Notes: a model not told the origin generated them from the letters alone. A stretch of 64,000 nt of DNA from Hyphomicrobium sp. (GCA_016716675.1 JADJVG010000008.1:123134-187133); one strand, 5' to 3'; positions 48,312-64,000 are shown, counted from the stretch's first letter. Program-made: numbers and translations.

Positions 48312-51289
48312 TCAGAACTTGACGCCAACCTTGGCGCCGCCGCTGTGTAGGGTGGTGTCGTCGCCGAATTGACCGTCGTACTGCAGACGTACGGTAATGC
48401 CGTTCTGCGAGATGAGGTCGATGCCGGCGCCAACGTCGGCGACGGTCTTATCGACATTGCTGACGAAGGCGAATGCTGGCGTGCCGGCCGGTGCTTCAAG
48501 GAACGACGCCGTCGCCGCGAACGAATCCGTATCGCGGAACGTCGCGCCGCCTTTGACGAAGGCGCGGGTAACAAAACCATCCTCGTAGCGGTGCCCGACT
48601 CCGAGTTCCAACGATGGCGATGCCGATAGCACCGTGTCGGAAGTCTCATCGACATGCAGCGCGATGCCGCCGGTGCCGTACTCGGAATAACCGTCTTGCT
48701 GCAGATGCGTGATGGCCGCTTCGATCTGCGGCCTGAGATAGAACGCCCCCTGGCTCATCAGATACGACGCGGTGAAGCGTCCGCTAACGAAGCTCGAGTC
48801 GTTGCTTGACGTTGCCGACGCAGAAAATCCGTCAAACGCAACATTGCGCTCGTTGTCGTGCCAGCCGAAGCCGCCAGTGACGCTGGCCGCCAACAACCAC
48901 GGCCCCGGATTGTACTTCAGGATGCCGCCGAGATGCAGGCGGTCGCCCTGGGACGCGGCGTTCCTGTTGGTCGCAGAATCGAGCGTCTCGTACCCGATGC
49001 CGCCACCGATGCGCCAGTCCGGCGCGACCATGAACTGGCCACCGGCCGAGACGAATGTTGCGTCTTCGTGGAACCTGTCGCGATTGGTGCCGCCGTCGTC
49101 CTCGTACCGCCGCTGATTGATGCGCGCCCACACGCACTGCCCTTCGCGGATGAATCGCACGCTCTCGCTTTCCTCGCCGACGACGCGGCACGACAGCAAT
49201 TGTTGAGCAAACGTCGTGTTGGAGGTGAGGGCGGTGGATAGTGTGCTACCGGTGCCGAGTGGGGCGAGCTGATTGAGAGCGTTGCCGAGTTCGCCCGACG
49301 TGGAAAGCTGCATCAGCGGCGGCATGAAGCCGAGCATGGTGCCGCCGCCAAAGATCGTGTTGAGGTTGGCGCCTATGGCGTTCTGGTTCGGCGTGAGATT
49401 GTTAACGTTGGTGCCCTGGAAGTTGATCGTCGCCTGCACGTTCATGGTGTTGGCGTCGGGAAACAGCGGGACGTATGTGAGCACCGCGGTGTTGGTGATC
49501 GAGATGCCGTTGTTGGTGATGCCGCCGTCCGCGGTCAAGACCGTGAAGGTCTTTTGTAGCCCGCCCGTTGTCGGAAGCCAGATAGGATCGACTACCAATT
49601 TGCCCGCGAGGCTAGCTGTGCCGGTCACGGCGAGCGTATCGGCTGTGCTGGTACCCCACGCCGCCCGCGTGCGAAGAACACCGCCGGACGTTTGCAGGTA
49701 TTTGCCGGCGAGGTTGACCGTGCCGATTGCGCCTATGCCGCCATTGAGGCGCAGCGTACCGGCATTGTTCAATGTGCCGCTGCCGCCGAGATCGACGGAG
49801 CTGCCGGTGTTGAAGGCTCCGCCCGATTTGTTGTTGAAAGTGGTCGACGACGTACCGGTGAGATCAACGTTGCCGTTGATCGTGCCGGTGTTGGTGACAC
49901 CGACATTGGTGCCGCGCGCATAGAGCGCGTTGCCGGATAGGGCACCGATCGTACCTGCGTTGGTGATTGTCGCAGCCGCGGCCTGTTGGATGTAGACGCC
50001 GTAACCAATTCCCGTGCCGCCCGACACGCTGCCACCGCTGAGGACGTTGATCGCGACGTTGCCGCCCGCGCCATCTATTCCGCTCACAACGCTCAGGTCT
50101 CCGGAGCCGCCGGGGCTGCCGCTTCCTCCGTCGTTGCCGGGCGGATCGCCGCTGCCACCAAGTCCACCGGCTCCTCCGTCGCCTCCACTGCCAGCTATGC
50201 TGCCAGGCGGGCCACCGACGCCGCCAATGCTCGCCGCATAGATGCCGTGCGAGGCGCTACCTGTCGCCGAGACAGTGCCGCTGATATTCACAGTTACAAC
50301 GCCGCCATTGCCCCCGTCGCCGCCAGCACCGCTGTTGGCGCCTTTGCCGCCTTTGCCGCCTTTACCGCCCTTGCCACCTTTGCCGCTGTCGTCTCCTCCG
50401 TCGCCTCCGATCCCCCCCGTTCCACCGTTCCCTCCAGCGCCTCCCGCTCCCCCCGCACCGCCTTGGCTGACGGCGTAGACACCATGTGACCCGATACCAG
50501 CCGTCAGGACGGTTCCAGATTCGTTGACGGTGACCGCTGGGCCCTTACCACCAAGCCCCCATTACCACCGACGCCACCTGGGCCGCCGTTGGTACCGGTG
50601 TCGCCGGGTCGACCGGGAGCACCATCGAATCCGTCACCACCCGTGCCGCCTATTCCGCCTGTTCCTCCCGCACCACCTTCACCACCGATGCCCGTTGTCA
50701 TGACGCCGTATGCGCCATTAACTGCCGTGGAGATCTGCCCGGCGACATTGACGGTCACGGCGCTGGTAGCACCCCCGCCGGTGCCGCCGCTGCCACCGGC
50801 ACCGCCCGCACCGCCCGGATCAAGCGGAGTGCCATCGCCTCCCGTTCCACCCAAACCGCCGTCACCGCCGGTACCCGCCGTTAGTCTCCCAAATGGGCCG
50901 ATGTCATTGGACGTTATGGACGACCCAGTGGGTAACGCGATGCTCAAAAAGCCATCGAGGCCGGAGCCACCGTTTCCGCCTGCACCGCCGGTGCCGCCTG
51001 ACGTGGAGGAGGGTGTCCCAAGTTGTCCGAAGGCTCCCATGCTCAAAACCTGGACGTGCCCCTCAGAACCCGCTATCGCGCCTGTGCATGTGTAGAAGAA
51101 GGTGCCGGGTGCGGGTGAGGCGAGGCTGCATTCCCCTCCGTTCGCGACGCTCTGTGTTGGGGCGAACATTGCGGCGAGGACGATCGTGCTCACGGATGTG
51201 CCAAGCTGATATCGGCGCTTGCGGAGCCCACCGTGGCCGCGCACCATCTCGCATTCAGCGTGACGCGCAGCATTACCTGCCATCGGCAT
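48312..51289 (-). pseudogene. Gly-rich autotransporter split by a single-base frameshift at a G5 run (50556-50560)
   Basis: 5' ORF (signal, GGxGG repeats) joins 3' ORF (barrel ending GAKVGVKF) if one G is added; the restored frame reads GNGGLGGKGPAVTVNESG...SHGVYA and continues without stops into the 659-aa ORF. Confidence 0.85.
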
Positions 51290-51624: not shown

Positions 51625-52290
51625 TTACGCCGCCAGACGTTCGAGACCCGCCACATCGAGCACGCGCAAGCCTTCCGGCGTCGCCGAGATCAAACCTTGC
51701 GACGACAAACGAACCAGGGCTTGCGCCAGGGTGTCGATGCTCATGCCGAGCAACCCGGCGACGAAGCCAGACGTCATGTCATCGGTGATGAGCGGTTCGG
51801 CGGTGCTCGCGCTTTGCGATATGGCCAGCACGGCGGTCAGGTATCGCGCCACCTGCCGCTCGGGATCAAGTGTACGGGCAGCCATGGCACGGTCACGCAC
51901 ATAATCGAACTCGATGTCGCTGGCGCTCGCCACCTTCAATGCCAGGAGATCGTCGGCGGCGATCCGTTGATCGAGTTCGTCTTCATCGACGAGGCTGACG
52001 ACGCTATCAACCATGGCTTGTGCCGTGCTGACGTGGTTGGCCAGTGCGCCCAAACCGAGATAATCGCCGGCAAAGGCCAACGCGATGATGTCGTGGCTGC
52101 CGTCAACCGACAACACATAATGACAGATGGCGCCCTGTTCGACGCGGTAGACGCGGCGGGGCTCGCCAGCTTGAAATAGGCGTGTGCCCATCTCCACCGA
52201 TTGCAACGTCTGCGGCCGAGCTGAGGACGGCGCTGAGACCGAAATGTCTGCGGGCAATCCGGCGCGGTAATTTTGGCGAACCATCCCCAT
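51625..52290 (-). CDS. Crp/Fnr family transcriptional regulator (no FNR Cys cluster; FixK-like)
   Basis: LFQAGEP...VYRVEQGAI, FAGDYLGL, C-terminal HTH (VAGLLGMSIDTLAQAL..L...GLI). Confidence 0.85.
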   Translation of the reverse strand: MGMVRQNYRAGLPADISVSAPSSARPQTLQSVEMGTRLFQAGEPRRVYRVEQGAICHYVLSVDGSHDIIALAFAGDYLGLGALANHVSTAQAMVDSVVSLVDEDELDQRIAADDLLALKVASASDIEFDYVRDRAMAARTLDPERQVARYLTAVLAISQSASTAEPLITDDMTSGFVAGLLGMSIDTLAQALVRLSSQGLISATPEGLRVLDVAGLERLAA

Positions 52291-52540
52291 TACGCAATAC
52301 TCCTTGGCGGGCTCGGCATGTAAGAAACGTGTATGCCTCAATCAAGTCGCAATTGGTAATGGGATCAGTAGGTAACGCGGTTGTGTTCGATGAAAATATG
52401 AATAAAACGCCGCAGTATTCTAGCCCGTAGGCTCGCTCAGAAAACACCGGCCCGGATGACGCTTGGGTACCATCATCCGGGCCGGTGGCCGTAGCAATCG
52501 GAAGCACAACGATCGGCGGGCCGATCGCTGCATTGTGCGC

Positions 52541-55500
52541 TTAGTTCAGCGGAACGCGCAGCATCGCGCGGCCCGAGATGGCGTGGTATTCGTCGCTGGT
52601 GCCGACGCCGTCGTAACTGCCGGAGAGATCGAGGGCGATGCCGCTCGGCAAGCCCATTTTCAGACCGAGTTCGACGCGCCCGCGGGCGCCTTCCGGACCG
52701 GCTGCACTGTCATCGATCGCACCCAGTCCCGCAGCCGTCGTATCTCCCGCGAAGTTCCAGATGAGTTCCATGCCGGCACGCGGCTCGATGAACCCACCCT
52801 CGGCGTTGGTGAACGTGTAGCTGATTTCCGGACCAGCCTTCGCTTGGCCAAGAGTGCTGGTCACGCCGGGGATCAGCACGCCGAAGGTGTCATGATAAGC
52901 GTCTGACGCATCCTCGATGTAAGAGATCGACGCCGACGGATTGAAGCTCCACGGACCAAATTTCCAGCGCCCTGAGAGGGTCGATGACGCAAGCCAGCGC
53001 TCACTGTCGAAGTCATCTTCGTAGGTGAGGAACGGCGAGATCGTGTTGCTCGACGTGCCCCAGGCCGCGCGTGACTGCCAGAACACATTCTCCGACAGGC
53101 GAACCGTGGCGTAAGGACCGGCCATCCAGCCGTGGCCGGAGACGTCGGTGCTCAAGCTGTTGGAACGCTGCTCCATGCTGTCGAACTGCACGAACATGCC
53201 GACCAGGAGACTACGGTTCAGCACGTAATCGGCGCCAACCGTGACGAAGCCGAAGTGTCCGTCGAGATCGCTCGATTGCAGCGCGCTATCGTCAAAGCGC
53301 ACGTACTTGCCTTCGATCCAGATGTCGAACGGGTTGAACTGCGGTTGATTGGAGGAAGCAAAGCCCAACGACAAGCCGCCGGTTTTCCGCGCTTCTGCAT
53401 CCGCCGCGAAGCGATAGAAGTCACGCAGGCTGGTTCCGAAGCCAAGGCTCATCGGACCATCGTTGGACGCCGACATGCGCATCGGCAGGGCGAGGCCGGA
53501 GGATGTCTCCATGTCATCGTCCGCCGTGCTGACCGCGATGCCATCGAATGGATTGGATGGGTTGTTGAATGCACCAACACGCCCACCGCTGAAGCCGCGG
53601 CTACGTCCAGCAAAGGCAAACCGGGCCATGTCACCGGCACCCGGTCCGTCGCCCAGGCGCGATTCCGTGACGGCACCCAACGCCGAGCGGCCTGCACCAC
53701 CGGAAAATCCTGATACAAAATTTTCGCTGGTTTCCTCGCCGCCGGGGTTGCCGCCACTTGATTCAATGCTTGTTGCTTCTATGGCTGCATTTGAGATGGT
53801 GTCGGAGCGACCATCGCCACCGGCTTCCATCAGGCGATCAATCTGACGACCTCCGTCTGGACCGTTGCTCAGCATCTGGTTGTTGCGCGCCGACATGAAC
53901 GAGCCGATGGCCTGCGTGGTCTTGGCTGTCTGATCTTCCGTCGCCGTGGTTATGGCCTCGGACGTGGCGGAGGCAAATGTGCCGCCGCCTGAATATCTGG
54001 CTGTCACCACATGCGCGCCGGCGCTGGTGAACGCAGCCGTACACCCTGCAACGCCGCCCGACAGCGGAACCGCTGCGCACAGCGCGTTGCCGTCAGCGGT
54101 GAAGGTCACCGTTCCTGTCGGAACCAGCGCGATCCGCGAAGCAGCCGTGCGAACACTGCGCGTCGGTGGCGCTGCACTGCTCACTGTGGCCGTGTACGCA
54201 ACGGGCTCGCCGATGTGGCTGGACGACTGCGAAGCGGTGATCGTGATCGTTACCGCCGATTGCAGAATGGCGAACGTCTGCGTGACATTCGCGGCAGCAT
54301 TGTAGTTGGCATCACCGGCCTGCGATGCCGTGATCGAGCATGTGCCCGGCGCAACGACGGTCACCGTGTCTCCGTTCGTGCCGCCTGTCGTACACACGCC
54401 TGTCGTCGTCGAGGCGAACGTCACCGGATTGCCGGAAGCGCCGCCGGTTGCTCCGAGCGTGAAAGTGGCACCAAGTCTGAAGATCTGATCCGCGGGCTTG
54501 GCAAAGCTTATCGTCTGCGAGATTTTGCCGATGTTAAACGTTCGCGGCACGTCCGTTGCGGCCGCGTAGTTGGCATCGCCCGCCTGCGAGGCTGTGATCG
54601 AGCATGTGCCCGGCGCCACGAAGGTCACCGTTTCGCCATGGGTGCCGCCTGTCGTACACACGCCCGTCGTTGTCGAGGCGAACGTCACCGGATTGCCGGA
54701 AGCGCCGCCGGTCGCTGACATGGCGAGTGTGCCGCCTGTCGAATAGGTCTGGTCCGCAGGCTGTGTGAATGAGATCGTCTGCGTCGCTAGGCCGACGGTC
54801 ACGTCAACCGTATCGGTTGCCTCCAGGAAATCGGCATCCGCCGCTTTCGTCGCTGTCACCGTGCAGGTGCCGACGCCCGTGCCGGTCAGAGTGGTACCCG
54901 CGATCGAGCAGAACGAACCACCAGCAGTGACAGTGAAGCTCACCGCGCCCGTGCCCGAGCCGCCACTCGTCGAGAGCGCCGACGTCGCGTTGTAGCCGAT
55001 CGACGCTGGCGTGGCCGTGGCGATCAAGGTCGCTTGTGCACCCTGGCCCACGTTCACGGTGTAGGCTCCTGACCTCGTGAACGGCGCGCCTGTGCCGGTC
55101 GAGCCGGTATCGGTGGCTGTGATGGTGAAATTGAATGAGCCTGCCGCCGTTGGCGTTCCCGATACCGTACCGTTGCTCAAGGTCAATCCGGCCGGCAGTG
55201 CACCCGCGGTCACAGCGTAGGTGTACGGACCGGTACCGCCGCTGGCGGTGAAGCTCTGCGAGAATGCCGTGCCACTGGTGGCGGTGAACGTCGGGCCAGC
55301 GGGCGCGAGTGTCAACGTCGGTGCCGCAACCGTCAGCGAGAACGCCTGACCGACGGTGTAGGGGCCGTTGCCGGTGCTGCTGTCGGTTGCGGAGACGTTG
55401 AGAGTGAAGGAACCCGCCTGCGTCGGCGTGCCGGATATGGTGACGGTATTGGCCGTCGTGCCAGTGATCGACAGGCCGGCCGGCAGATTGGTGGCTTGAT

Positions 55501-58237
55501 AGCCGTTCCAGGGCTGCGCGCCGCCGTTGAAGGTGAAGGTCTGGGTGTACGGCGCCGCGACGCTTGAGGCGAAGCCACCAGAGGGCGTGATCGTGATCAC
55601 CGGATCGCTCACGGTAATCGAAACCGTCGCAGCCGCCGAAGTGCCGCTGTCGTTGGTCGCGGTATAAGTGAAACTATCCGGGCCGGCGTAACCGGTTGCC
55701 GGTTGGTAGGTGATCGTTGTGCCGCTGGCGGTTGCCGTGCCATGCGATGCCTGCGTGGCGACGGCAACCGAAGTCGCTGCGCCACCGGAAAGTGACAGAG
55801 GGACATTTGTGGCGGGAGCGTTGTAAGCCACCGTCAATGACGAATTGCCGGCTGTTGGCGGCGCCGCGATGACGGTGATCGAATAAGCTTGTGTCCTTAT
55901 GTAAGGCCCGGTGCCGGTACTGCTGTCGGTCGCTGTGATGGAGAAGTTGAACGTGCCTGCCGCGGCCGGTGTTCCGGTGATGGCACCGGTACTTGTGTTC
56001 AGCGTCAGGCCACTCGGCAGAGCGCCGGCAGTCACGGCGTAGCTGTAGGGTGAAGTGCCGCCCGAAGCGGCCGTGATCGACTCTGAGTAGGCCGAAGCTT
56101 CAGTCCCGCCCGCCAGCGTCTTGTTCGGTAGAACGATCGTCGGCTCCGACACGACCAAGGTATAGGCCCGGCTCCCAGCAAACGGACCCGGGAATGGACT
56201 GCTGTCGGTTGCGGTAACGGTGAAATTAAACGAGCCGCCCGCGGTCGGCGTACCGCTGAGCGCGCCGCTCTGGGCTAATGTCAGACCTGCTGGCAAGGCT
56301 CCCGCAGTGATCGCGAAAGTGTAAGGGCTGACGCCGCCACTGGCGGTGATGGTCTGGCTGTAGGCCACAGCCACCGTCGTATTCGGCAACGTTGCCGGGT
56401 TGACGGTCACGGGGACGTCGTCATTGCTGATCGTGCCCAAACCCTGATTGTCAGAGATTGTGGCGTTGGTCGCGCCGCTGAGGTTTGCGAAGAAGGTCTC
56501 GTTCGCTTCTGGCACGACTTCGCCGACCGCTGGCACGGTTATGGTGTTCGTGGTCTGGCCGGGCGTGAACGTCAGCGTGCCCGACGTGGAGGTGTAATCG
56601 GCCGGCTGCGTCGCGGTGCCGTCGGCCGTCGCGTAATTCACAGAGACGCTCTGGCCGCTGGCGGCGCTGAGGGTCACAGTGAATACCGCGTTCGTTGTGC
56701 CGCTATTGCCTTCGACAACAGTAACGTCGTTGATCGATAGACTGGGCAACGGATCGTCATTTGCGACCGTCCCCACGCCCTGGCCGTCGACAACGACGGC
56801 ATTGACCACATTAGTGACGTTGGCGAAGAAGGTCTCGGTGGGCTCGTTGAGCGTATCGCCGTTGACCAGCACGGTGAAGGTGTAGGTGCTGGAGCCGGCC
56901 GGGATGGTCTGGCCGGTGAGGCTGTTGGCGACGTAATCGACCCCCGCCGTGGCGGTGCCGTTGGCTGTCGTGATGTCGAAGGTGACGCCGCCGGGGCCAG
57001 CCGGAGCGGACAAACTCACGGTGAAGGTGAAATTGGTGATACCGGCGTTGCCTTCACTCGCGGTGACATCATTGATCGTCAAGTTCGGCAGGTCGTCGTT
57101 GAGGATGGTGCCGGTGGCGCTGTTGGGCACGCCGACTGTGTAGCCGGTGCCGGCAGCAAGAGTGAGGGTCACCGTTTCGTCACCCTCGATCGAGGCGTCG
57201 GCCGTCGGGTTGACGGTGATCGTGCCGGTGGTGGCGCCAGCCGCGATGACCAGCGGCGACGCGATCGTCGTGTGGTCGGTACCGTTGGTCGCGGTGCCGC
57301 CCACGGTGTAATTCACCGGCAGGGGAGAGAGTGGAGCTTGGTTGAGAGTGACCGTGTAGATGAGGTTTGTCGCGCCGTCTTCCGCGACGGATGCAGGCGA
57401 GACAGCGATGGTGGCAGTCGGCACGTCGTCATTGAGGATGGTGCCGGTGGCGCTGGTCGGAGACCCGACCGTGTAGCCGGTGCCGGCAGCAACCGTCAGT
57501 GTCACGGTTTCATCAGCTTCAACCGTGCCATCGACGCTCGGATTGATTGGGATAGTGGCGGTGGTGGCGCCAGCCGCGATGGTTACCGTTGCAACGTTGC
57601 CCGTGTAATCGGTGCCGGAGGTCGAAGTGCCCGTGGTGGTGATGTTGACCACCGTCTCCGACGCCAGATTGATGCTGCGGGTTACCGTGTAGGTGAGGTT
57701 GGTTGCACCATCTTCGCTGACACTGGCCGGCGAAACCGCGATGGAGACGGATGGCGTTGCATCAAACCCGCCGCCAGACACGGAGAAAGACGACGCACTG
57801 TCACCGCTCAAGTTGAACGTTATTGCGGATGTCGAAACCGTTTGGCCGTTGTTGTCCGTATAGCTGTAGGTCGCGGTGCAAGTTCCCGTGAAGCACGCTG
57901 CAAAGCCTACGTCAGCAAAGCAATCTCCTGTGCACGATGGAGTATTGGTTGAAGAACTCGAATTTACGTAGTGAGTAAAATCAATTTCCCCTGCAAATGG
58001 TTCAACCTTCAAACCGTTAGCGGGATTTGCGCCATTTAAGGTACAAGCTGGCGTAGCCGCATTGGCTGTAACCCAGATATTCGAACCCATAGCCGGACAA
58101 GACACTGCTGCCGATGCCGCGTGCGGCAGCGCCGTCATCGAAACCACAAGAGCAGCAAAGAGATAAATCCAGCGCGCAACAGCGCCGCCGCGAGCAAGCC
58201 TCGGCCGGTTGCCGTTGCCCCGGACTTTTAAAGACAT
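52541..58237 (-). CDS. Large autotransporter adhesin: Cys-rich tip, 4 Calx-beta, several putative-Ig domains, tandem 88-aa repeats, Ig-like domain, beta-barrel
   Basis: Signal WIYLFAALVVSMTALPHAASA; Calx-beta units ending GTILNDD; GALPAGLTL...GTPT Ig units; barrel ending MLRVPLN. Alternative starts at 58279 and 58345. Confidence 0.9.
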   Translation of the reverse strand: MSLKVRGNGNRPRLARGGAVARWIYLFAALVVSMTALPHAASAAVSCPAMGSNIWVTANAATPACTLNGANPANGLKVEPFAGEIDFTHYVNSSSSTNTPSCTGDCFADVGFAACFTGTCTATYSYTDNNGQTVSTSAITFNLSGDSASSFSVSGGGFDATPSVSIAVSPASVSEDGATNLTYTVTRSINLASETVVNITTTGTSTSGTDYTGNVATVTIAAGATTATIPINPSVDGTVEADETVTLTVAAGTGYTVGSPTSATGTILNDDVPTATIAVSPASVAEDGATNLIYTVTLNQAPLSPLPVNYTVGGTATNGTDHTTIASPLVIAAGATTGTITVNPTADASIEGDETVTLTLAAGTGYTVGVPNSATGTILNDDLPNLTINDVTASEGNAGITNFTFTVSLSAPAGPGGVTFDITTANGTATAGVDYVANSLTGQTIPAGSSTYTFTVLVNGDTLNEPTETFFANVTNVVNAVVVDGQGVGTVANDDPLPSLSINDVTVVEGNSGTTNAVFTVTLSAASGQSVSVNYATADGTATQPADYTSTSGTLTFTPGQTTNTITVPAVGEVVPEANETFFANLSGATNATISDNQGLGTISNDDVPVTVNPATLPNTTVAVAYSQTITASGGVSPYTFAITAGALPAGLTLAQSGALSGTPTAGGSFNFTVTATDSSPFPGPFAGSRAYTLVVSEPTIVLPNKTLAGGTEASAYSESITAASGGTSPYSYAVTAGALPSGLTLNTSTGAITGTPAAAGTFNFSITATDSSTGTGPYIRTQAYSITVIAAPPTAGNSSLTVAYNAPATNVPLSLSGGAATSVAVATQASHGTATASGTTITYQPATGYAGPDSFTYTATNDSGTSAAATVSITVSDPVITITPSGGFASSVAAPYTQTFTFNGGAQPWNGYQATNLPAGLSITGTTANTVTISGTPTQAGSFTLNVSATDSSTGNGPYTVGQAFSLTVAAPTLTLAPAGPTFTATSGTAFSQSFTASGGTGPYTYAVTAGALPAGLTLSNGTVSGTPTAAGSFNFTITATDTGSTGTGAPFTRSGAYTVNVGQGAQATLIATATPASIGYNATSALSTSGGSGTGAVSFTVTAGGSFCSIAGTTLTGTGVGTCTVTATKAADADFLEATDTVDVTVGLATQTISFTQPADQTYSTGGTLAMSATGGASGNPVTFASTTTGVCTTGGTHGETVTFVAPGTCSITASQAGDANYAAATDVPRTFNIGKISQTISFAKPADQIFRLGATFTLGATGGASGNPVTFASTTTGVCTTGGTNGDTVTVVAPGTCSITASQAGDANYNAAANVTQTFAILQSAVTITITASQSSSHIGEPVAYTATVSSAAPPTRSVRTAASRIALVPTGTVTFTADGNALCAAVPLSGGVAGCTAAFTSAGAHVVTARYSGGGTFASATSEAITTATEDQTAKTTQAIGSFMSARNNQMLSNGPDGGRQIDRLMEAGGDGRSDTISNAAIEATSIESSGGNPGGEETSENFVSGFSGGAGRSALGAVTESRLGDGPGAGDMARFAFAGRSRGFSGGRVGAFNNPSNPFDGIAVSTADDDMETSSGLALPMRMSASNDGPMSLGFGTSLRDFYRFAADAEARKTGGLSLGFASSNQPQFNPFDIWIEGKYVRFDDSALQSSDLDGHFGFVTVGADYVLNRSLLVGMFVQFDSMEQRSNSLSTDVSGHGWMAGPYATVRLSENVFWQSRAAWGTSSNTISPFLTYEDDFDSERWLASSTLSGRWKFGPWSFNPSASISYIEDASDAYHDTFGVLIPGVTSTLGQAKAGPEISYTFTNAEGGFIEPRAGMELIWNFAGDTTAAGLGAIDDSAAGPEGARGRVELGLKMGLPSGIALDLSGSYDGVGTSDEYHAISGRAMLRVPLN
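54302..54720 (-). repeat. Near-identical intragenic tandem duplication, 264 bp period
   Basis: GTAGTTGGCATC...GCGAACGTCACCGGATTGCCGGAAGCGCCGCCGG occurs starting at both 54302 and 54566. Confidence 0.9.
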
Positions 58238-58545
58238 CGCCGCCGAGAGGGTCGAGAGCCGCTGTGTTGTAAAAATCATTTTCCAGGTTCCCGCGTCGGC
58301 TGCTTTTCGCTTTTGCCGTGCCACCAAAAATTCAGGCGAACGCACTCAAAGTCTCGCGAACCCAAAGAATGAGCGTAGCCAATCGGCCACGCGTCACAAC
58401 GGGCACGCGAACGCGGAAAAAACGCAGCACATGCGCAGGACTTCAATGTTGTGAGAGGGGTTCAATTCGACAGCGGGCGCCAAAAAAACAAGCGCGCGCA
58501 GTGAAAACGCGATAATGGCCCCCAACGCCCCTGTGGCAACCAATA

Positions 58546-58595: not shown

Positions 58596-59045
58596 TTAAA
58601 ACAGTGGCTTAGGCCGTTATACCTAGTCGAATCTACCTATGTGTCATTATTACACCACTTTGCTCCAGTCGAGGCCATGATCGGTTCTGTGGCGCTGATG
58701 GCGATGAGAGGTTTTCAACAAGTGCGTGCCCGCGGCGCCTGTTCGCTGCGTCTTCAGTTTGGCTGAGGGGTGGCGTGCGCTCGAATCTTTGCGGCTGAAA
58801 TGATTCGCGCGTACGCGCGCTTGCCGCCCGCACGTCCGCGGCTTGACGCCGTCACATGCTGAACAGTTCAATCGAAGCTCTTCCAAACACTGTTCACGCT
58901 GCGCCGCGCGGCATCCGATGATGACGGATGCTTCTGGTTCCATATCAAACGGCCCCAGTGGTGCTTTGCCGGGCAGCCCGGCAGCCTAATCATGTGAGCG
59001 TGGGTATTCCCCGGATTTCCATGATTCAGCGGTTGCTGGGAGGGA

Positions 59046-60776
59046 ATGATGAAACGCATATGGAATTTGCTTTCCGATGCCGTTGCAATGGTGGCCGCTA
59101 CGGCCTTGTCCGCCACGTTGCTGGCAGGACTTTCCATTGATACGGCGTATGGCGACGTGCCCGATGAAACGTATAAAGCGCTGGGCCTCGAAAAAACTGC
59201 GTCGCCAAAGGAACTCTATGACGCGCTGACAAAGCGCTACAACAGCACCGAGGAAGGTGCGGGGACGGGCTCGCTATCGAAATTCTGGGAGCCGATCCCG
59301 ATTTCCAAATACCTCAATCCGCGCGATTTCTACAAGCCGCCGGCCAACCCCGAAGTGGACGCCACGCGCGCCCAGTGCGTTGAGTGCCACACGACGATTT
59401 CGCCGGGTTGGGTCCATTCCTGGCAAAAGAGCGTGCACGGCAATCTCGATGAGATTCGCTCATTGCCGGATACCGATTCGCGTTCCTACAAAAAGGGGAT
59501 GATCACAGAAGTCGAGGGCAACCTGCGCTCGATGGGTCTTTTGAAAGAGGGCGATCCGCTCAAGGAAGTGGGGTGCATCGATTGCCACATTGGCGTCGGT
59601 AAGGATCACGGCGTGCATCAGACGGAATTGAAGATGCCGGATGCGGCCGCGTGTGGTCAGTGCCACGTCAAACAGTTCGCGGAGCGGGAATCCGAACGCG
59701 ATACGGTGACCTGGCCACAGGATCAGTGGCCGGCAGGGCGTCCGTCACATGCGCTTTCTTACAAAGCCAATGTTGAAACGGCGATCTGGGCGGCGATGGA
59801 GCAGCGCGAAGTCGCGGAAGGCTGCACATTCTGCCATACGGCGCAGAACACATGTAACAGTTGCCATACGCGCCATGAGTTCTCGGCTGTCGAAGCGCGT
59901 AAGCCTGAAACGTGCGCCATGTGCCACAACGGCGTCGATCACAATGAGTTCGAGGCCTACATGTACTCGAAGCATGGCACGATCTATCAAACGCGTGGCG
60001 ATACGTGGGATTGGAATGCCCAGCTTGCCGATGCCATCGGCAAGGGCGGCATGAACGCACCGACATGCCAATTCTGCCATATGGAATATCAAGGCAAGTT
60101 TGGCCACAACCTGGTGCGTAAAGTGCGCTGGGCCTTTGAACCGACGACCAAGATTGCAGACAACCTCAAGCATCCTTGGTTTGAAAGCCGCAAAGACGCT
60201 TGGGCCGGAACGTGCGCAAATTGCCACTCTGAACGGTTCGCGCGGGCCTATCTCGACTTCATCGACAAGGGCACCATCGACGGCATCAAGATCACCGAAG
60301 ATGCTAAGCTGGTGCTGACCAAGCTCTATGACGACGGATTGCTGCCTGGGCAGAAGACCAACCGTCCGAAGGTTCCGGAACCAGAGAAGGAAAATGGCCC
60401 CGGCAACTTCTTCAATCTGTTCTGGCAGAAGGGCAACAATCCAACTGTTGTCGAATACGAATTCGCCGAGATGTGGGAGCACCACAAGATCAAGCACTAC
60501 AAGGGGCTCGCACACGCAAATCCCGGTGGCTACACGTATACGGAAGGTTGGTCGCAACTCATCAAGAGCGCCGTGCGCATCAATGATGAGGATGCCAAAC
60601 TTCGCGACATGGCCGAAATCAAGGCCAAGGTCGAGGCTCTCAAGCCACCTCAGAAACGTGGCGACCTGCTGAACCTCGAAACGCCGACACAACGCGCGAT
60701 GCTCGGTGGGCTTGGTGGACTGCTTATGTTGCTCGGAATTGGTGCCTACGTGCGCAACAGGAACAGGCCCAATTAG
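59046..60776 (+). CDS. haoA: Octaheme hydroxylamine oxidoreductase HaoA (methanotroph type)
   Basis: Sec signal; 8 CxxCH motifs (CVECH, CIDCH, CGQCH, CTFCH, CNSCH, CAMCH, CQFCH, CANCH); CHNGVDH catalytic D/H; GLAHANPGGYTYTEGW cross-link Tyr motif; C-terminal TM anchor; GGAGG RBS. Confidence 0.92.
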   Translation: MMKRIWNLLSDAVAMVAATALSATLLAGLSIDTAYGDVPDETYKALGLEKTASPKELYDALTKRYNSTEEGAGTGSLSKFWEPIPISKYLNPRDFYKPPANPEVDATRAQCVECHTTISPGWVHSWQKSVHGNLDEIRSLPDTDSRSYKKGMITEVEGNLRSMGLLKEGDPLKEVGCIDCHIGVGKDHGVHQTELKMPDAAACGQCHVKQFAERESERDTVTWPQDQWPAGRPSHALSYKANVETAIWAAMEQREVAEGCTFCHTAQNTCNSCHTRHEFSAVEARKPETCAMCHNGVDHNEFEAYMYSKHGTIYQTRGDTWDWNAQLADAIGKGGMNAPTCQFCHMEYQGKFGHNLVRKVRWAFEPTTKIADNLKHPWFESRKDAWAGTCANCHSERFARAYLDFIDKGTIDGIKITEDAKLVLTKLYDDGLLPGQKTNRPKVPEPEKENGPGNFFNLFWQKGNNPTVVEYEFAEMWEHHKIKHYKGLAHANPGGYTYTEGWSQLIKSAVRINDEDAKLRDMAEIKAKVEALKPPQKRGDLLNLETPTQRAMLGGLGGLLMLLGIGAYVRNRNRPN

Positions 60777-60910
60777 CCGATGACCTCACAGGAATGACGA
60801 TCCGGGCAGCAGCCAGTTTGGCCGGCTGCCCGGTTCGATTTTTCCGGCCGGTGCTAAAGCACGTCACGAAAAACCAAATCACGGAAACCAGCTCAATGAT
60901 TGGTGGTTCG

Positions 60911-61918
60911 ATGTCCGAAGCGCAAACTCTCGCAAATCGCACGCATATGAACTGGGGCCCGATCGCCTTGACGGCAATCGGCGCGATCATGGCCGGCCTT
61001 GCCGTCAATTCGGCAATGCAACCCGCCGAGCTCCCCTATCAGAGAACCATCGTCGACGCCGCTCCTGAAACCTACGCGGCGCTTTCGCTGCCGGCTTCAG
61101 ATCCTGCAATGAGCGTGAAGAAGCTTGAGTGGAGCGTGTCGAGCGTTCGCGAACCCATCGCGACCGCAGTGGTTGCAACGGACGCCGACGGACGACACGT
61201 TCCGCTCGACTGGCAGAACAATGTCACCGAGCCGGTGTTTGCTGCGGATCTAAGGATGACCGAAGTCAGCAAAGTGCTGGCAGCCATTCGCGAACATGTT
61301 CCCGAAAATGCTGTCGTCCTCTCATGGTGGGATTTGTCGCGGAAGATCCGTCTGGTGGCGCAGCGTCAGGCACCACTCGACGATCCATATGCTCGTGGAC
61401 TGATATTGCCGACGGCCTGGCAGTCAGCATCAGGTCTGATTGACGAGCAGGAAAACACCTACTGGGGTAAAGGCGTTTCCGAAGCCGATGGCAAAAAATT
61501 CACGCATTACATAGATGCGCTGCTTCTCGATGAGATCAAAGGAGCCGACGCGCTGCGCGCATTGGTTCCTGACGGCAAAGACGTCTACGTGGCGGTTCAT
61601 CTCTCCGACATCTGGAAGGCGGCTGCCAGCCGGCACGATCAGATAGGAATTGCCTATAAGGATATTCCCAGCGGAGGCCAGTCGCATAGCGTCATGAAGG
61701 CGGCGAAGGATTGGATCCGGGAACAGAAGATCGAGGGCGGCTATGCCGTCGAGCCGGTTGGAAATGCTGTCCGGCTGCATTACTTCACGGGCAAGGACAG
61801 CTCCAATCTTCTGCTTGCGAAATTGCTACCGTTCTCGACGTCAAACCCGATGCAACTCGAACGCTTCGAGCTCGTCTATCAGCATCGCGGCTTCTGGGTC
61901 TACAAGCTCAAGGGATAG
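60911..61918 (+). CDS. haoB: HaoB (hao-associated membrane-anchored protein)
   Basis: Directly after haoA; N-terminal TM; LDWQ...EP, VVLSWWDLSRKIRL, LAKLLPFSTSNP, LVYQ..GFWVYKL resemble HaoB as I recall it. Alternative start at 60794. Confidence 0.8.
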   Translation: MSEAQTLANRTHMNWGPIALTAIGAIMAGLAVNSAMQPAELPYQRTIVDAAPETYAALSLPASDPAMSVKKLEWSVSSVREPIATAVVATDADGRHVPLDWQNNVTEPVFAADLRMTEVSKVLAAIREHVPENAVVLSWWDLSRKIRLVAQRQAPLDDPYARGLILPTAWQSASGLIDEQENTYWGKGVSEADGKKFTHYIDALLLDEIKGADALRALVPDGKDVYVAVHLSDIWKAAASRHDQIGIAYKDIPSGGQSHSVMKAAKDWIREQKIEGGYAVEPVGNAVRLHYFTGKDSSNLLLAKLLPFSTSNPMQLERFELVYQHRGFWVYKLKG

Positions 61919-61969
61919 CGGTGGTGATCTGTGGCCAGCTCTCTGCTGGCCACGCCCTCATTTGGTGCC

Positions 61970-62407
61970 TCACTTGGTCGTGATCGGAACCACGCCGTTC
62001 TTCAAAGTCTCGGATACTTCGCGCGGCATGTAGTTTTCATCGTGCTTGGCTAGGATCGTCGTCGCCTCGAAAGTACCATTCTTGACGAGGCCCTCTGCAA
62101 CGACGCCTTGTTGCTCGCGGAACAGATCCGGCAGGATTCCGCTATAGCGAACGCCTATGGCATTGGCGCCATCGGTAATGCGGAAGGTCACGTTCATTCC
62201 GTCTTGCTGGCGTATGACGCTGTCTTTCTCAACAAGACCGCCGATGCGGGTCTGCTGTCCGGCAATGACTTTGCCTTCTTGAATATCGCTTGGCGTATGA
62301 AAGAAGACGATGTTGTCGCGCATCGCGGTCATCACGAGTACGCCGCATGCGGCAAGGATCGCCACAGCGCTCGAAATGAGCAGTGCGCGCTTTCCTTTGC
62401 GGCTCAT
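61970..62407 (-). CDS. ccmE: Cytochrome c maturation heme chaperone CcmE
   Basis: [40 protein letters not shown] overlaps the hemA stop (ATGA). Confidence 0.95.
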
Positions 62408-63723
62408 GGCTTCTCTCCGCCTCTGATAGTCAAGGGGAGGTCGAGATGCCTCCACGTTTCCCGCAGGGCATCCACGAGATCATTGATCATCGCCTCGCTG
62501 TGGCAGGGGCCTGGCGTTATTCTAAGGCGTTCGGTTCCGCGAGCGACGGTTGGGTAGTTGATCGGCTGGATATAGATGTTCCGCTTTTCCAGGAGATAGT
62601 CGCTCGCCGCTTTGCAGAGCACGGGATCGCGCACCATCACCGGAACAATATGGCTGACGCAATCGAGGACAGGCAGTCCGCCGCGCTTTAACCGGCTCCT
62701 GAGGAGGGCTGCATGTTCGTGCAGTTTCTGCCGCTCAACCGAGGACGCCTTCAAGTGCCGGACGCTGGCCAGCGCGCCAGCGGCGACCACTGGCGGCACC
62801 GTTGTTGTGAAGATGAAACCCGAGCCGAAACAGCGAACCGCGTCGATGACAGTGCTAGAAGCGGCGATGTAGCCGCCGATCACGCCAACGGCTTTGGCGA
62901 GTGTCGCCTGGATGACATCGACGCGATCTGCGACCCCGTCGCGTTCGGCAACGCCGGCACCCGTTCGGCCATACATGCCGACGGCATGAACTTCGTCGAG
63001 GTAGGTGAGGGCGCCATAGCGATGGGCGATGTCGCAGAGCAGGCCGATCGGCGCGATGTCGCCATCCATGGAATAGACGGACTCGAACGCCACGATCTTC
63101 GGTCTTGAGGTCGGCAGTTTCGCCAAAATCTCTTCAAGATGATTGTGGTCGTTGTGGCGGAAGATAAACTTCTCCACGCCGCTCGAGCGGATGCCATGGA
63201 TCATGGAGGCATGATTGTTGGCATCAGAAATCAGCACGCATTCCGGAAGCAGCTTGGCGAGCGTTTCAAGAACCGTGAGGTTGGCGACATAGCCTGACGA
63301 GAACACGAGTGCCGCCGGCTTGTCGTGCAGGTGCGCAAGTTCGCGCTCCAACTCAACGACGGGCCGATGGTTGCCAGATATGTTGCGCGTTCCGCCGGAG
63401 CCCGCGCCGAAGGTCTCGATGGCGGTCTTCATGGCGTCCAACACGATTGGGTGCTGGCCCATGCCGAGATAGTCGTTCGAGCACCACACGGTGACGGTGC
63501 TCACTTGGCCATTGCGCCACATTTGCGCGCGCGGAAAATCGCCGACAAGCCTGCCATTCTCGATGAATTGCCGGTAGCGGCCCTCAAATTTGAGCTCCTC
63601 GATTTGAAAACCAAGAATGCGATCATAGTCTGGTGGCGCGTTGCTCCATTTACAGGGTGGTTTAGCTGCGTGTTGCTGCAAGACATGGGAATGCTGAGAG
63701 CCAACGGAACGATGTGTTTTCAT
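62404..63723 (-). CDS. hemA: 5-aminolevulinate synthase
   Basis: [60 protein letters not shown]-Lys, [15 protein letters not shown]. Confidence 0.93.
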
Positions 63724-64000
63724 TTTGCTTTGTGTTCCTGAGCTCTGACCAGTTGCAGGGGGCGTTGCGCTGGGACTAGCTGCGGGCGGCTCTCCAGCGG
63801 ACGCGGTTTCGAGCTCTTTCAATAATCCGGTGACGGCGTTTTTAGCTTCGGAGTTCTCCGGCACGATACCGGAAAGCTGCGTCAGCGTTTTCTTGGCGTC
63901 TTCGATTTCATGGCGGCGAACCTGGCCGATGCTTTTCAGCCAGAGCGCTTCCGGCTTTTTCGGATCGGATGAGAGGATACCGTCGACGATCTTCTCGCCT
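63724..64000 (-). CDS. C-terminal part of a TPR protein (CcmI/CycH-like?), in frame with hemA; 5' part outside the window
   Basis: Hand translation [53 protein letters not shown] is TPR-like; no stop before the hemA ATG. Confidence 0.55.

Follow-up and report, generated by a model that had tools for sequence, protein, structure and literature searches.

A nine-gene cassette combining hydroxylamine oxidoreductase genes with cytochrome c maturation, haem synthesis and MocR-type regulator genes in Hyphomicrobium sp.

The sequence analysed in this study, hereafter the window, is a 64,000-nucleotide stretch of Hyphomicrobium sp. (GCA_016716675.1, JADJVG010000008.1:123134-187133; positions 123134-187133 of contig C8), taken from a draft genome of 3.49 Mb in 33 contigs with a completeness of 93.6%, for which all genome-wide absences given below hold. 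At its end the window carries haoA and haoB, encoding a hydroxylamine oxidoreductase (HAO) and its partner HaoB, which face an operon of System I cytochrome c maturation (ccm) genes, a hemA gene for 5-aminolevulinate synthase (ALAS) and a gene for a MocR-type regulator. That operon runs beyond the window, and coordinates past base 64000 are extrapolated from a 19-kb segment, L001 (window position = L001 + 57000). The genes and the element between them, identified by family models and signature motifs, are as follows.

59046-60776, plus strand: haoA, octahaem hydroxylamine oxidoreductase, 576 aa, with a signal peptide and a hydrophobic C-terminal tail (PF13447, 497 bits)
60896-61918, plus strand: haoB, membrane-anchored HaoA partner; likely start at 60896, longest open reading frame (ORF) from 60794 (TIGR04392, 279.7 bits, cut-off 200)
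61931-61953, no strand assigned: hairpin with a perfect 9-bp stem, predicted by folding
61970-62407 (ORF 61970-62455), minus strand: ccmE2, haem chaperone CcmE with HDENY motif, last gene of its operon (PF03100, and NF009731 with 180 bits, cut-off 152)
62404-63723, minus strand: hemA2, 5-aminolevulinate synthase, 439 aa from the ATG at 63723 (TIGR01821, 608 bits, cut-off 338.55)
63724-64746, minus strand, the 3' part to 64000 within the window: ccmI2, CycH-like, two transmembrane helices and a periplasmic TPR domain (PF23914, 45.7 bits, cut-off 42)
64743-65207, minus strand: ccmH2, with LRCPVC motif
65204-65794, minus strand: ccmG2/dsbE, with WCGAC motif (TIGR00385, 123.8 bits, cut-off 123.15)
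65791-67791, minus strand: ccmF2, with WWD motif (TIGR00353, 591 bits, cut-off 569)
67819-69327, minus strand: mocR, MocR-type regulator (PF00392, GntR-type winged helix-turn-helix, and PF00155, aminotransferase fold)

The whole locus thus consists of two convergent operons of about 10.3 kb together, and the minus-strand genes are transcribed in the order mocR-ccmF-ccmG-ccmH-ccmI-hemA-ccmE with 4-bp overlaps at most of the junctions. The start of haoB falls 18-120 nt past the end of haoA, and the gene was called as 340 aa on the identical contig of an independent assembly. The gap between haoB and the convergent ccmE ORF is exactly 51 bp, and the hairpin within it, the fold of which is not statistically exceptional (z = -1.3), is a possible bidirectional terminator. 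An earlier note on the window had described a haoA with eight CxxCH motifs, the GVDH pair and the TYTEGW tyrosine, followed by haoB and, 51 bp downstream, by convergent genes for CcmE, ALAS and a TPR protein, and the coordinates, family models and alignments of this study agree with that description. Extension past base 64000, which that note had recommended in order to look for ccmABCDF/H, revealed ccmH, ccmG/dsbE, ccmF and mocR on the same strand; ccmABCD are not contained in the cassette.

The CxxCH motifs of HaoA, all eight of them canonical, are at residues 111, 177, 203, 260, 270, 290, 341 and 390, with GVDH at residue 296 and TYTEGW at residue 497. Alignment with the HAO of Nitrosomonas europaea (NeHAO; 4FAS/1FGJ) was end-to-end with a score of 689 bits and, by positions counted along the printed alignment, placed the Asp-His pair on D267/H268 of NeHAO (NGVDHN versus SGVDHN) and the Tyr on Y467 (YTYTEGW versus WTYTEGW of 4FAS). 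Y467 of the N. europaea enzyme is the residue that cross-links haem P460. The Asp-His pair and the Tyr were invariant across 14 diverse homologues, down to 57% identity. As judged from its sequence, HaoA bears all the marks of an oxidative, P460-type HAO, in agreement with the significance that had been given to these residues beforehand. The presence and invariance of these residues make it improbable that HaoA runs reductively in a denitrifier-type host, converting NO or nitrite to NH2OH or NH4+ in the manner suggested for the HAO of certain denitrifiers, even though HAO has been reported to reduce NO in vitro and hao is found in the denitrifier Ca. Desulfobacillus (PMC8402940). A further point for the reductive direction is an Rrf2-family regulator adjoining the cassette (L001 13718-14173, plus strand; about 6.7 kb past the window end and about 1.4 kb beyond mocR), which has a C-x7-C-x5-C pattern and the NO sensor NsrR as its best NCBIfam match; that match, with RirA as a close second, reaches 130 bits and stays below the cut-off of 182, and other genomes with the cassette do not share this neighbour. 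A crude search for the NirK copper-ligand motif gave no match in the draft, a result that is unreliable as a sign of absence.

The products CcmE, CcmF, CcmG, CcmH and CcmI of the minus-strand operon are the late components of System I, recognised by family models together with signature motifs, except that CcmH2 was identified by LRCPVC, 41% identity to the housekeeping CcmH and a match to NrfF below threshold. When the entire draft was searched by tblastn with the cassette proteins, a classical housekeeping cluster cycH-ccmE-ccmF-ccmH-degP (cycHJKL) was located on contig C1, with identities to the cassette copies of 55% (ccmE), 43% (ccmF) and 41% (ccmH), and a second hemA, 59% identical to that of the cassette, on contig C12. 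The best match to ccmG outside the cassette was only 28% identical. The claim that the neighbouring haem genes form the supply of the hao module itself is therefore upheld in that they are extra copies, the housekeeping ccmI-E-F-H being on C1 and the housekeeping hemA on C12. That ccm and hemA are instead housekeeping genes chancing to adjoin haoAB, as their adjacency taken by itself might suggest, is contradicted by the more canonical cycHJKL-degP cluster and the second hemA elsewhere in the genome and by the conservation of the adjacency across several families, and can hardly be entertained.

ORFs with at least two CxxCH motifs number only 10 across the draft, and just one besides HaoA has more than three. 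This ORF (C9:73227-74180, plus strand) is membrane-anchored and pentahaem, with five CxxCH, and is the sole other true multihaem candidate in the draft. Its matches to NapC/NirT (PF03264) and to cytochrome c554 (PF13435) are weak and below both cut-offs, so that it was assigned to neither; it is a possible candidate for passing electrons from HAO to the quinone pool. The opposite strand of the same segment contains a stretch of highly repetitive reading frames of the PMPDIPD type. No c554-like tetrahaem protein is recognisable among the 10 ORFs, and at the locus it is the convergent ccmE that comes after haoB, so that the haoAB-cycAB arrangement of ammonia-oxidising bacteria (AOB) is not present and the absence of cycAB (c554/cM552) stated in the earlier note extends to the draft. 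Because of these low numbers, HaoA is by far the largest consumer of haem c in the cell.

Functionally, the accessory genes come closest to NrfEFG of Escherichia coli, a set of CcmF/CcmH/CcmI paralogues encoded in the nrf operon and needed for attachment of the CXXCK haem of NrfA; in both cases a System I haem lyase linked to one substrate is duplicated beside a multihaem enzyme of the nitrogen cycle. The two differ in that NrfEFG serves a CXXCK site, of which HaoA has none, and that the cassette also duplicates CcmE, CcmG and ALAS. Assignment of the cassette genes to NrfEFG itself was rejected on the absence of CXXCK and on the scores with TIGR03145 (NrfE; 581 bits, cut-off 927) and TIGR03147 (NrfF; 69 bits, cut-off 159). 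After this analogy, the private Ccm set might serve a special chemical step, such as attachment of one particular haem of HaoA or formation of the Tyr-haem P460 cross-link, and not capacity. The identity of the CcmF/H/I paralogue set with that of NrfEFG, the 581 bits of CcmF2 on the NrfE model and the additional duplication of CcmE and CcmG are in line with such a step; nevertheless we consider it unlikely, since all eight sites of HaoA are canonical, the NrfE and NrfF models remain far below their cut-offs, and the HaoA of Methylocystis (70-75% identity) and the HAO of AOB are made without such genes.

In this assembly ccmI reads in frame into hemA, giving an apparent CcmI-ALAS protein of 780 aa, and this continuity depends on one short homopolymer.

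63723-63726, minus strand: A-run, AAAA here and AAA in an otherwise identical contig; the extra A abolishes the ccmI stop of the ATGA overlap

The contig of the independent assembly ERZ22157947 differs across the aligned junction only in having AAA just before the ATG, and there a 341-aa CcmI and a 439-aa ALAS are encoded separately. All relatives likewise have separate ccmI and hemA genes joined by the ATGA overlap, and among the 120 best database matches no other fused CcmI-ALAS protein was found, the 439-aa ALAS being present there as a separate protein. A real bifunctional fusion, which would physically couple haem synthesis to haem attachment and for which the continuous 780-aa ORF speaks, would moreover be topologically awkward, because the C-terminal TPR domain of CcmI is periplasmic and ALAS, which needs succinyl-CoA, is cytoplasmic. 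Such a fusion appears very unlikely, and on the comparison of assemblies and relatives we attribute the junction to an error in the homopolymer or to a frameshift at strain level. The cassette ALAS has an N-terminal extension with a conserved P-C-K-W before the ALAS core (about 63600-63640, minus strand), which is found also in the loci L009, L010, L011, L016-L018, L020 and L022; this extension belongs to cassette ALAS of the Hyphomicrobium clade and does not occur in those of Mesorhizobium or Ruegeria.

For the distribution of the locus, the HaoA alignment was scanned against one genome per species, yielding 80 loci, and the synteny table was made by tblastn. The nine genes haoA-haoB-mocR-ccmF-ccmG-ccmH-ccmI-hemA-ccmE occur together in at least 24 of the 80 loci, usually all on one strand, and are carried by metagenome-assembled genomes (MAGs) of Hyphomicrobium and Hyphomicrobiaceae and by Methyloligellaceae, Xanthobacteraceae, Pseudaminobacter, Rhodospirillales and unclassified Hyphomicrobiales, as well as by two cultured strains, Mesorhizobium sp. 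Root552 and Root157. The megaplasmid of Ruegeria (Silicibacter) pomeroyi DSS-3 (NC_006569, 204.5-214.3 kb) also has this set of nine genes, labelled in RefSeq as multihaem cytochrome, HaoB, PLP-dependent aminotransferase family protein (PLP, pyridoxal phosphate), CcmF/NrfE, DsbE, cytochrome c biogenesis protein, TPR protein, hemA and ccmE; all of them lie there on one strand, whereas haoAB is inverted relative to the rest in the present locus, and the two HaoA proteins are 63% identical. The hao-orf2 pair of S. pomeroyi was reportedly noted by Bergmann et al. in 2005. On the Ruegeria megaplasmid the cassette is followed (L089, 21910-25503) by genes for a group III truncated haemoglobin, a DUF2189 protein and ccoNO (cbb3 oxidase), which have no counterpart here, and these neighbours hint at NO handling and a link to a terminal oxidase. 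Since the same gene set recurs in so many genomes, the adjacency of hao, ccm and hemA is, on this comparative evidence, not a matter of chance. No tenth conserved gene was found outside Methylocystis by all-against-all clustering of the flanking ORFs of 82 loci. Reduced forms were also observed: the Methyloligellaceae loci L057 and L058 have no detectable hemA, ccmE in L057 coming directly after ccmI, and loci of Burkholderiaceae have ccmF/ccmH and mocR upstream of haoAB without hemA.

The named members of the host genus are Hyphomicrobium MAGs, as expected from the Hyphomicrobium-like host proposed beforehand. Within this genus haoB was detected in 4 of 37 sampled species, three of the four being public MAGs labelled Hyphomicrobium or uncultured Alphaproteobacteria, and two layouts exist, the collinear ccm...ccmE-haoAB (G020, G036) and the convergent one described here (G007). 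Wide occurrence of haoAB with the same synteny in the genus, which the earlier note had set down as speaking against its reading of the locus, was thus found in part, in other Hyphomicrobium MAGs and in many other Alphaproteobacteria. Homology to seven other loci of the Hyphomicrobium clade begins at haoA and ends at mocR, the flanks being unrelated, and the HaoA tree mixes taxa, with sequences of Steroidobacteraceae and Oceanibacterium inside a Hyphomicrobiales/Mesorhizobium clade. The patchy distribution, the cassette-bounded homology, the plasmid location in Ruegeria and the taxonomic mixing in the tree together support horizontal spread of the cassette. A strict reading as a mobile element is not supported, since the GC content of the cassette (0.584; genome mean 0.604, 9th percentile) is only mildly low and a scan of flanking ORFs showed neither an integrase nor a transposase. 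The proposal of a transferable module accordingly stands as far as distribution, differing flanks and the Ruegeria megaplasmid are concerned, and finds no support in base composition or in adjacent mobility genes.

The relation to methanotrophs was examined with a maximum-likelihood tree of HaoA rooted on Nitrosococcus, which is a single-gene tree with a limited outgroup. In this tree Hyphomicrobium and Methylocystaceae/Beijerinckiaceae form one clade (100/98), within which one group of Hyphomicrobium cassettes branches first (100/99) and the methanotroph-family clade (99/95) has the remaining Hyphomicrobium cassettes as its sister group (95/89); cassette carriers of more distant relationship fall outside this clade. 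At Methylocystis loci for which the full 10-kb flanks are available, haoAB stands alone or, in some cases, with a divergent mocR downstream, and ccm and hemA are always missing. Because the haoAB-only clade nests among cassette-bearing Hyphomicrobium lineages, the cassette was probably the original state in this region of the tree, and the methanotroph layout is probably derived. The description of haoAB as methanotroph-type is therefore justified by similarity, HaoA being 70-75% and HaoB about 45-54% identical to the Methylocystis proteins (mHAO) and neither system having cycAB, though the direction of descent was probably the reverse; the related claim of a methanotroph layout is not supported, the actual unit being a nine-gene cassette typical of non-methanotrophs. 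Some Methylocystis loci share the MocR gene and the upstream repeat described below, and Methylocystis differs from the present host in possessing particulate methane monooxygenase (pMMO). The AOB cluster haoA-haoB-cycA-cycB of N. europaea resembles the present locus in the end-to-end homology of HaoA, the identical catalytic and cross-link residues and the position of haoB after haoA; here, unlike there, c554/cM552 genes are not adjacent, amo is missing, and the locus has its own Ccm, ALAS and MocR genes. In a quick tree, hemA2 of this locus fell within a clade of 14 cassette hemA genes (96) including those of Mesorhizobium and Ruegeria, and the cassette hemA of the Hyphomicrobium loci L017, L019 and L022 grouped with the housekeeping hemA of this genome (99). 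This suggests replacement of hemA in place in these three loci, and therefore selection for some ALAS gene at the cassette position.

The regulator encoded by mocR belongs to the MocR/GabR family, with an N-terminal GntR-type winged helix-turn-helix domain and a C-terminal fold-type-I aminotransferase domain, and the Lys in GTFSKSMGPG is predicted to be the PLP-binding lysine from its usual SxSK context. The PdxR model NF052282 gave 438 bits (cut-off 320); an identification as PdxR was discarded because the gene is found in the hao cassette in 45 loci and not beside pdx genes. A block conserved upstream of haoA in all 11 aligned loci of the Hyphomicrobium clade has the form TGGYNC(CA)-N-TGGYNC, with half-sites 24 nt apart, and occurs at both ends of the locus.

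58935-58964, plus strand: candidate operator 1, TGGTTC-N18-TGGTGC, about 110 nt upstream of the haoA start
69430-69459 (L001 12430-12459), minus strand: candidate operator 2, TGGCAC-N18-TGGTTC, about 130 nt upstream of mocR

Both repeats have the same orientation relative to their own operon and are the only matches in the 19-kb L001 (0.23 expected), and the refined pattern has only 6 matches in the 3.49-Mb genome, two of which are the cassette sites. Operator 2 is present also in the convergent-layout loci L010, L011 and L020. Upstream of haoA the strict repeat was detected in 29 of 79 loci, compared with 1.7% of background windows, and it accompanies mocR, being found in 22 of 37 mocR-positive and 1 of 25 mocR-negative loci (Fisher p = 8e-6), counts that are not phylogenetically independent, so that shared ancestry inflates the statistics. 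At the sole mocR-negative locus with the repeat the contig ends before mocR could appear, and within Methylocystis the repeat is present in exactly the mocR-bearing loci. Fifteen mocR-positive loci are without the strict repeat, several of them with near-matches. Regulators of the GabR type bind direct repeats (ATACCA, the complement of TGGTAT). On the basis of this parallel and of the co-occurrence with mocR, we propose TGGYNC-N18-TGGYNC as a candidate operator of the cassette MocR regulator, through which both operons would be co-regulated. In family and gene context the cassette regulator may be likened to DnfR, a MocR-family protein that governs the dirammox dnf cluster of Alcaligenes (PMC12575085); that cluster produces hydroxylamine, its pathway passing through this compound, and its enzymes DnfABC are unrelated to HaoAB.

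From these observations we consider it likely that the locus is one functional hao unit with a private haem machinery, under MocR control, and with a role in the removal of NH2OH. HaoA would be exported to the periplasm and, by analogy with characterised HAOs, would oxidise NH2OH to NO. A private late System I, consisting of the chaperone CcmE, the lyase CcmF/H with the apocytochrome chaperone CcmI, and the thiol reductase CcmG, would be supplied by the cassette because a HaoA trimer should carry 24 covalent haems in a host with very few other multihaem proteins, and the extra ALAS would raise the flux of haem precursor. The accessory genes would thereby increase the capacity for haem loading, perhaps also its specificity via CcmI, and haem export and loading by CcmABCD are assumed to be provided by the host. 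The MocR regulator would probably switch on both operons jointly through the shared repeat. The substrate would be external or adventitious NH2OH, from neighbours or from side reactions, because the host appears to be without ammonia or methane monooxygenase: in agreement with the earlier note, no candidate at all of the amoA/pmoA family PF02461 was found in the draft. Two pyrroloquinoline quinone (PQQ) dehydrogenases of the methanol/ethanol family (TIGR03075) are encoded in the genome, and the likely benefit would be removal of an inhibitor of periplasmic PQQ methanol dehydrogenases (MDHs), with electrons as a bonus. NH2OH is reported to compete with methanol at MDH and to suppress calcium- and lanthanide-dependent MDHs (PMC12636513, which cites Versantvoort 2020 and Duine & Frank 1980 on Hyphomicrobium X). 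A role in cross-feeding or detoxification is plausible.

Several findings weigh against this interpretation. An electron acceptor for HAO (c554/cM552) was not identified in the draft by the multihaem ORF screen. A motif search of the draft did not turn up the CcmC-type WWD motif, so that dependence on host CcmABCD is an assumption; a ccmABCD(G) cluster may lie in the unassembled part of the genome. Methylocystis and the ammonia oxidisers mature HAO without private Ccm genes, indicating that the extra set is not strictly required. The mild GC shift, the lack of mobility genes nearby, the shared ancestry behind the repeat counts and the 15 loci without the strict repeat point in the same direction. 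The incompleteness of the draft, from which ccmC and hence some genes appear to be missing, also bears on the possibility that the host is a cryptic methane or ammonia oxidiser with pmo/amo in the unassembled ~6% and haoAB in its usual methanotroph role; this seems most improbable, since there is no PF02461 candidate, the genus is Hyphomicrobium, and the same cassette is present in isolates of Mesorhizobium and Ruegeria, neither of which are methanotrophs or nitrifiers.

The functional hao unit favoured here could be extended by a tentative and rather doubtful proposal, namely that the cassette MocR is itself a direct sensor of NH2OH activating both operons by way of the TGGYNC-N18-TGGYNC repeats, with the corollary that haoAB (with mocR) of Methylocystis arose from a heterotroph cassette by loss of the haem genes. 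We speculate that NH2OH would attack the PLP-lysine aldimine of the effector domain to form an oxime. If this is true, the appearance of hydroxylamine would be the sole condition under which HAO, its haem lyase and the additional haem synthesis are jointly induced.

That non-nitrifiers can carry haoAB became known in the mid-2000s (PMC2802487). Our literature search brought up no account of the nine-gene cassette, of where it occurs, of its regulator site or of how it relates to the hao of methanotrophs; nor did it yield a description of hao in Hyphomicrobium or anything joining haoAB with ccmF or HAO with cytochrome c maturation plus ALAS, so that the cassette is apparently undescribed, even though the Ruegeria genes have been annotated individually. 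Hydroxylamine is a reactive and toxic intermediate released by nitrifiers and methanotrophs, and to our knowledge its consumers in mixed communities are poorly known. The cassette, being widespread and apparently distributed horizontally, would equip ordinary heterotrophs and methylotrophs with a complete and self-sufficient hydroxylamine oxidase, implying a guild that scavenges hydroxylamine, makes NO and N2O precursors and would be miscounted as nitrifiers or methanotrophs in surveys of marker genes. It would also be a natural example of an enzyme that brings along the machinery for synthesis and attachment of its own cofactor. Since the carriers Ruegeria pomeroyi DSS-3 and Mesorhizobium sp. 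Root157 and Root552 are cultured and genetically tractable, they allow direct tests of what HAO does in non-nitrifiers, of what HaoB contributes and of the proposed pairing of regulator and operator.

Some further features were observed around the cassette and in the locus sample. Directly upstream of the cassette lies a gene (52541-58345, minus strand) for a 1934-aa surface protein with Calx-beta, He_PIG and Ig-like repeats, and near it are genes for a Crp/Fnr-type regulator (51625-52341) and a 659-aa autotransporter (48312-50291, minus strand). A HaoA labelled Gemmatimonadales (P0116) is nearly identical to that of a Burkholderiaceae MAG (L084), with branch lengths of 0.002 and 0, and one of these two bins is probably mis-assigned.

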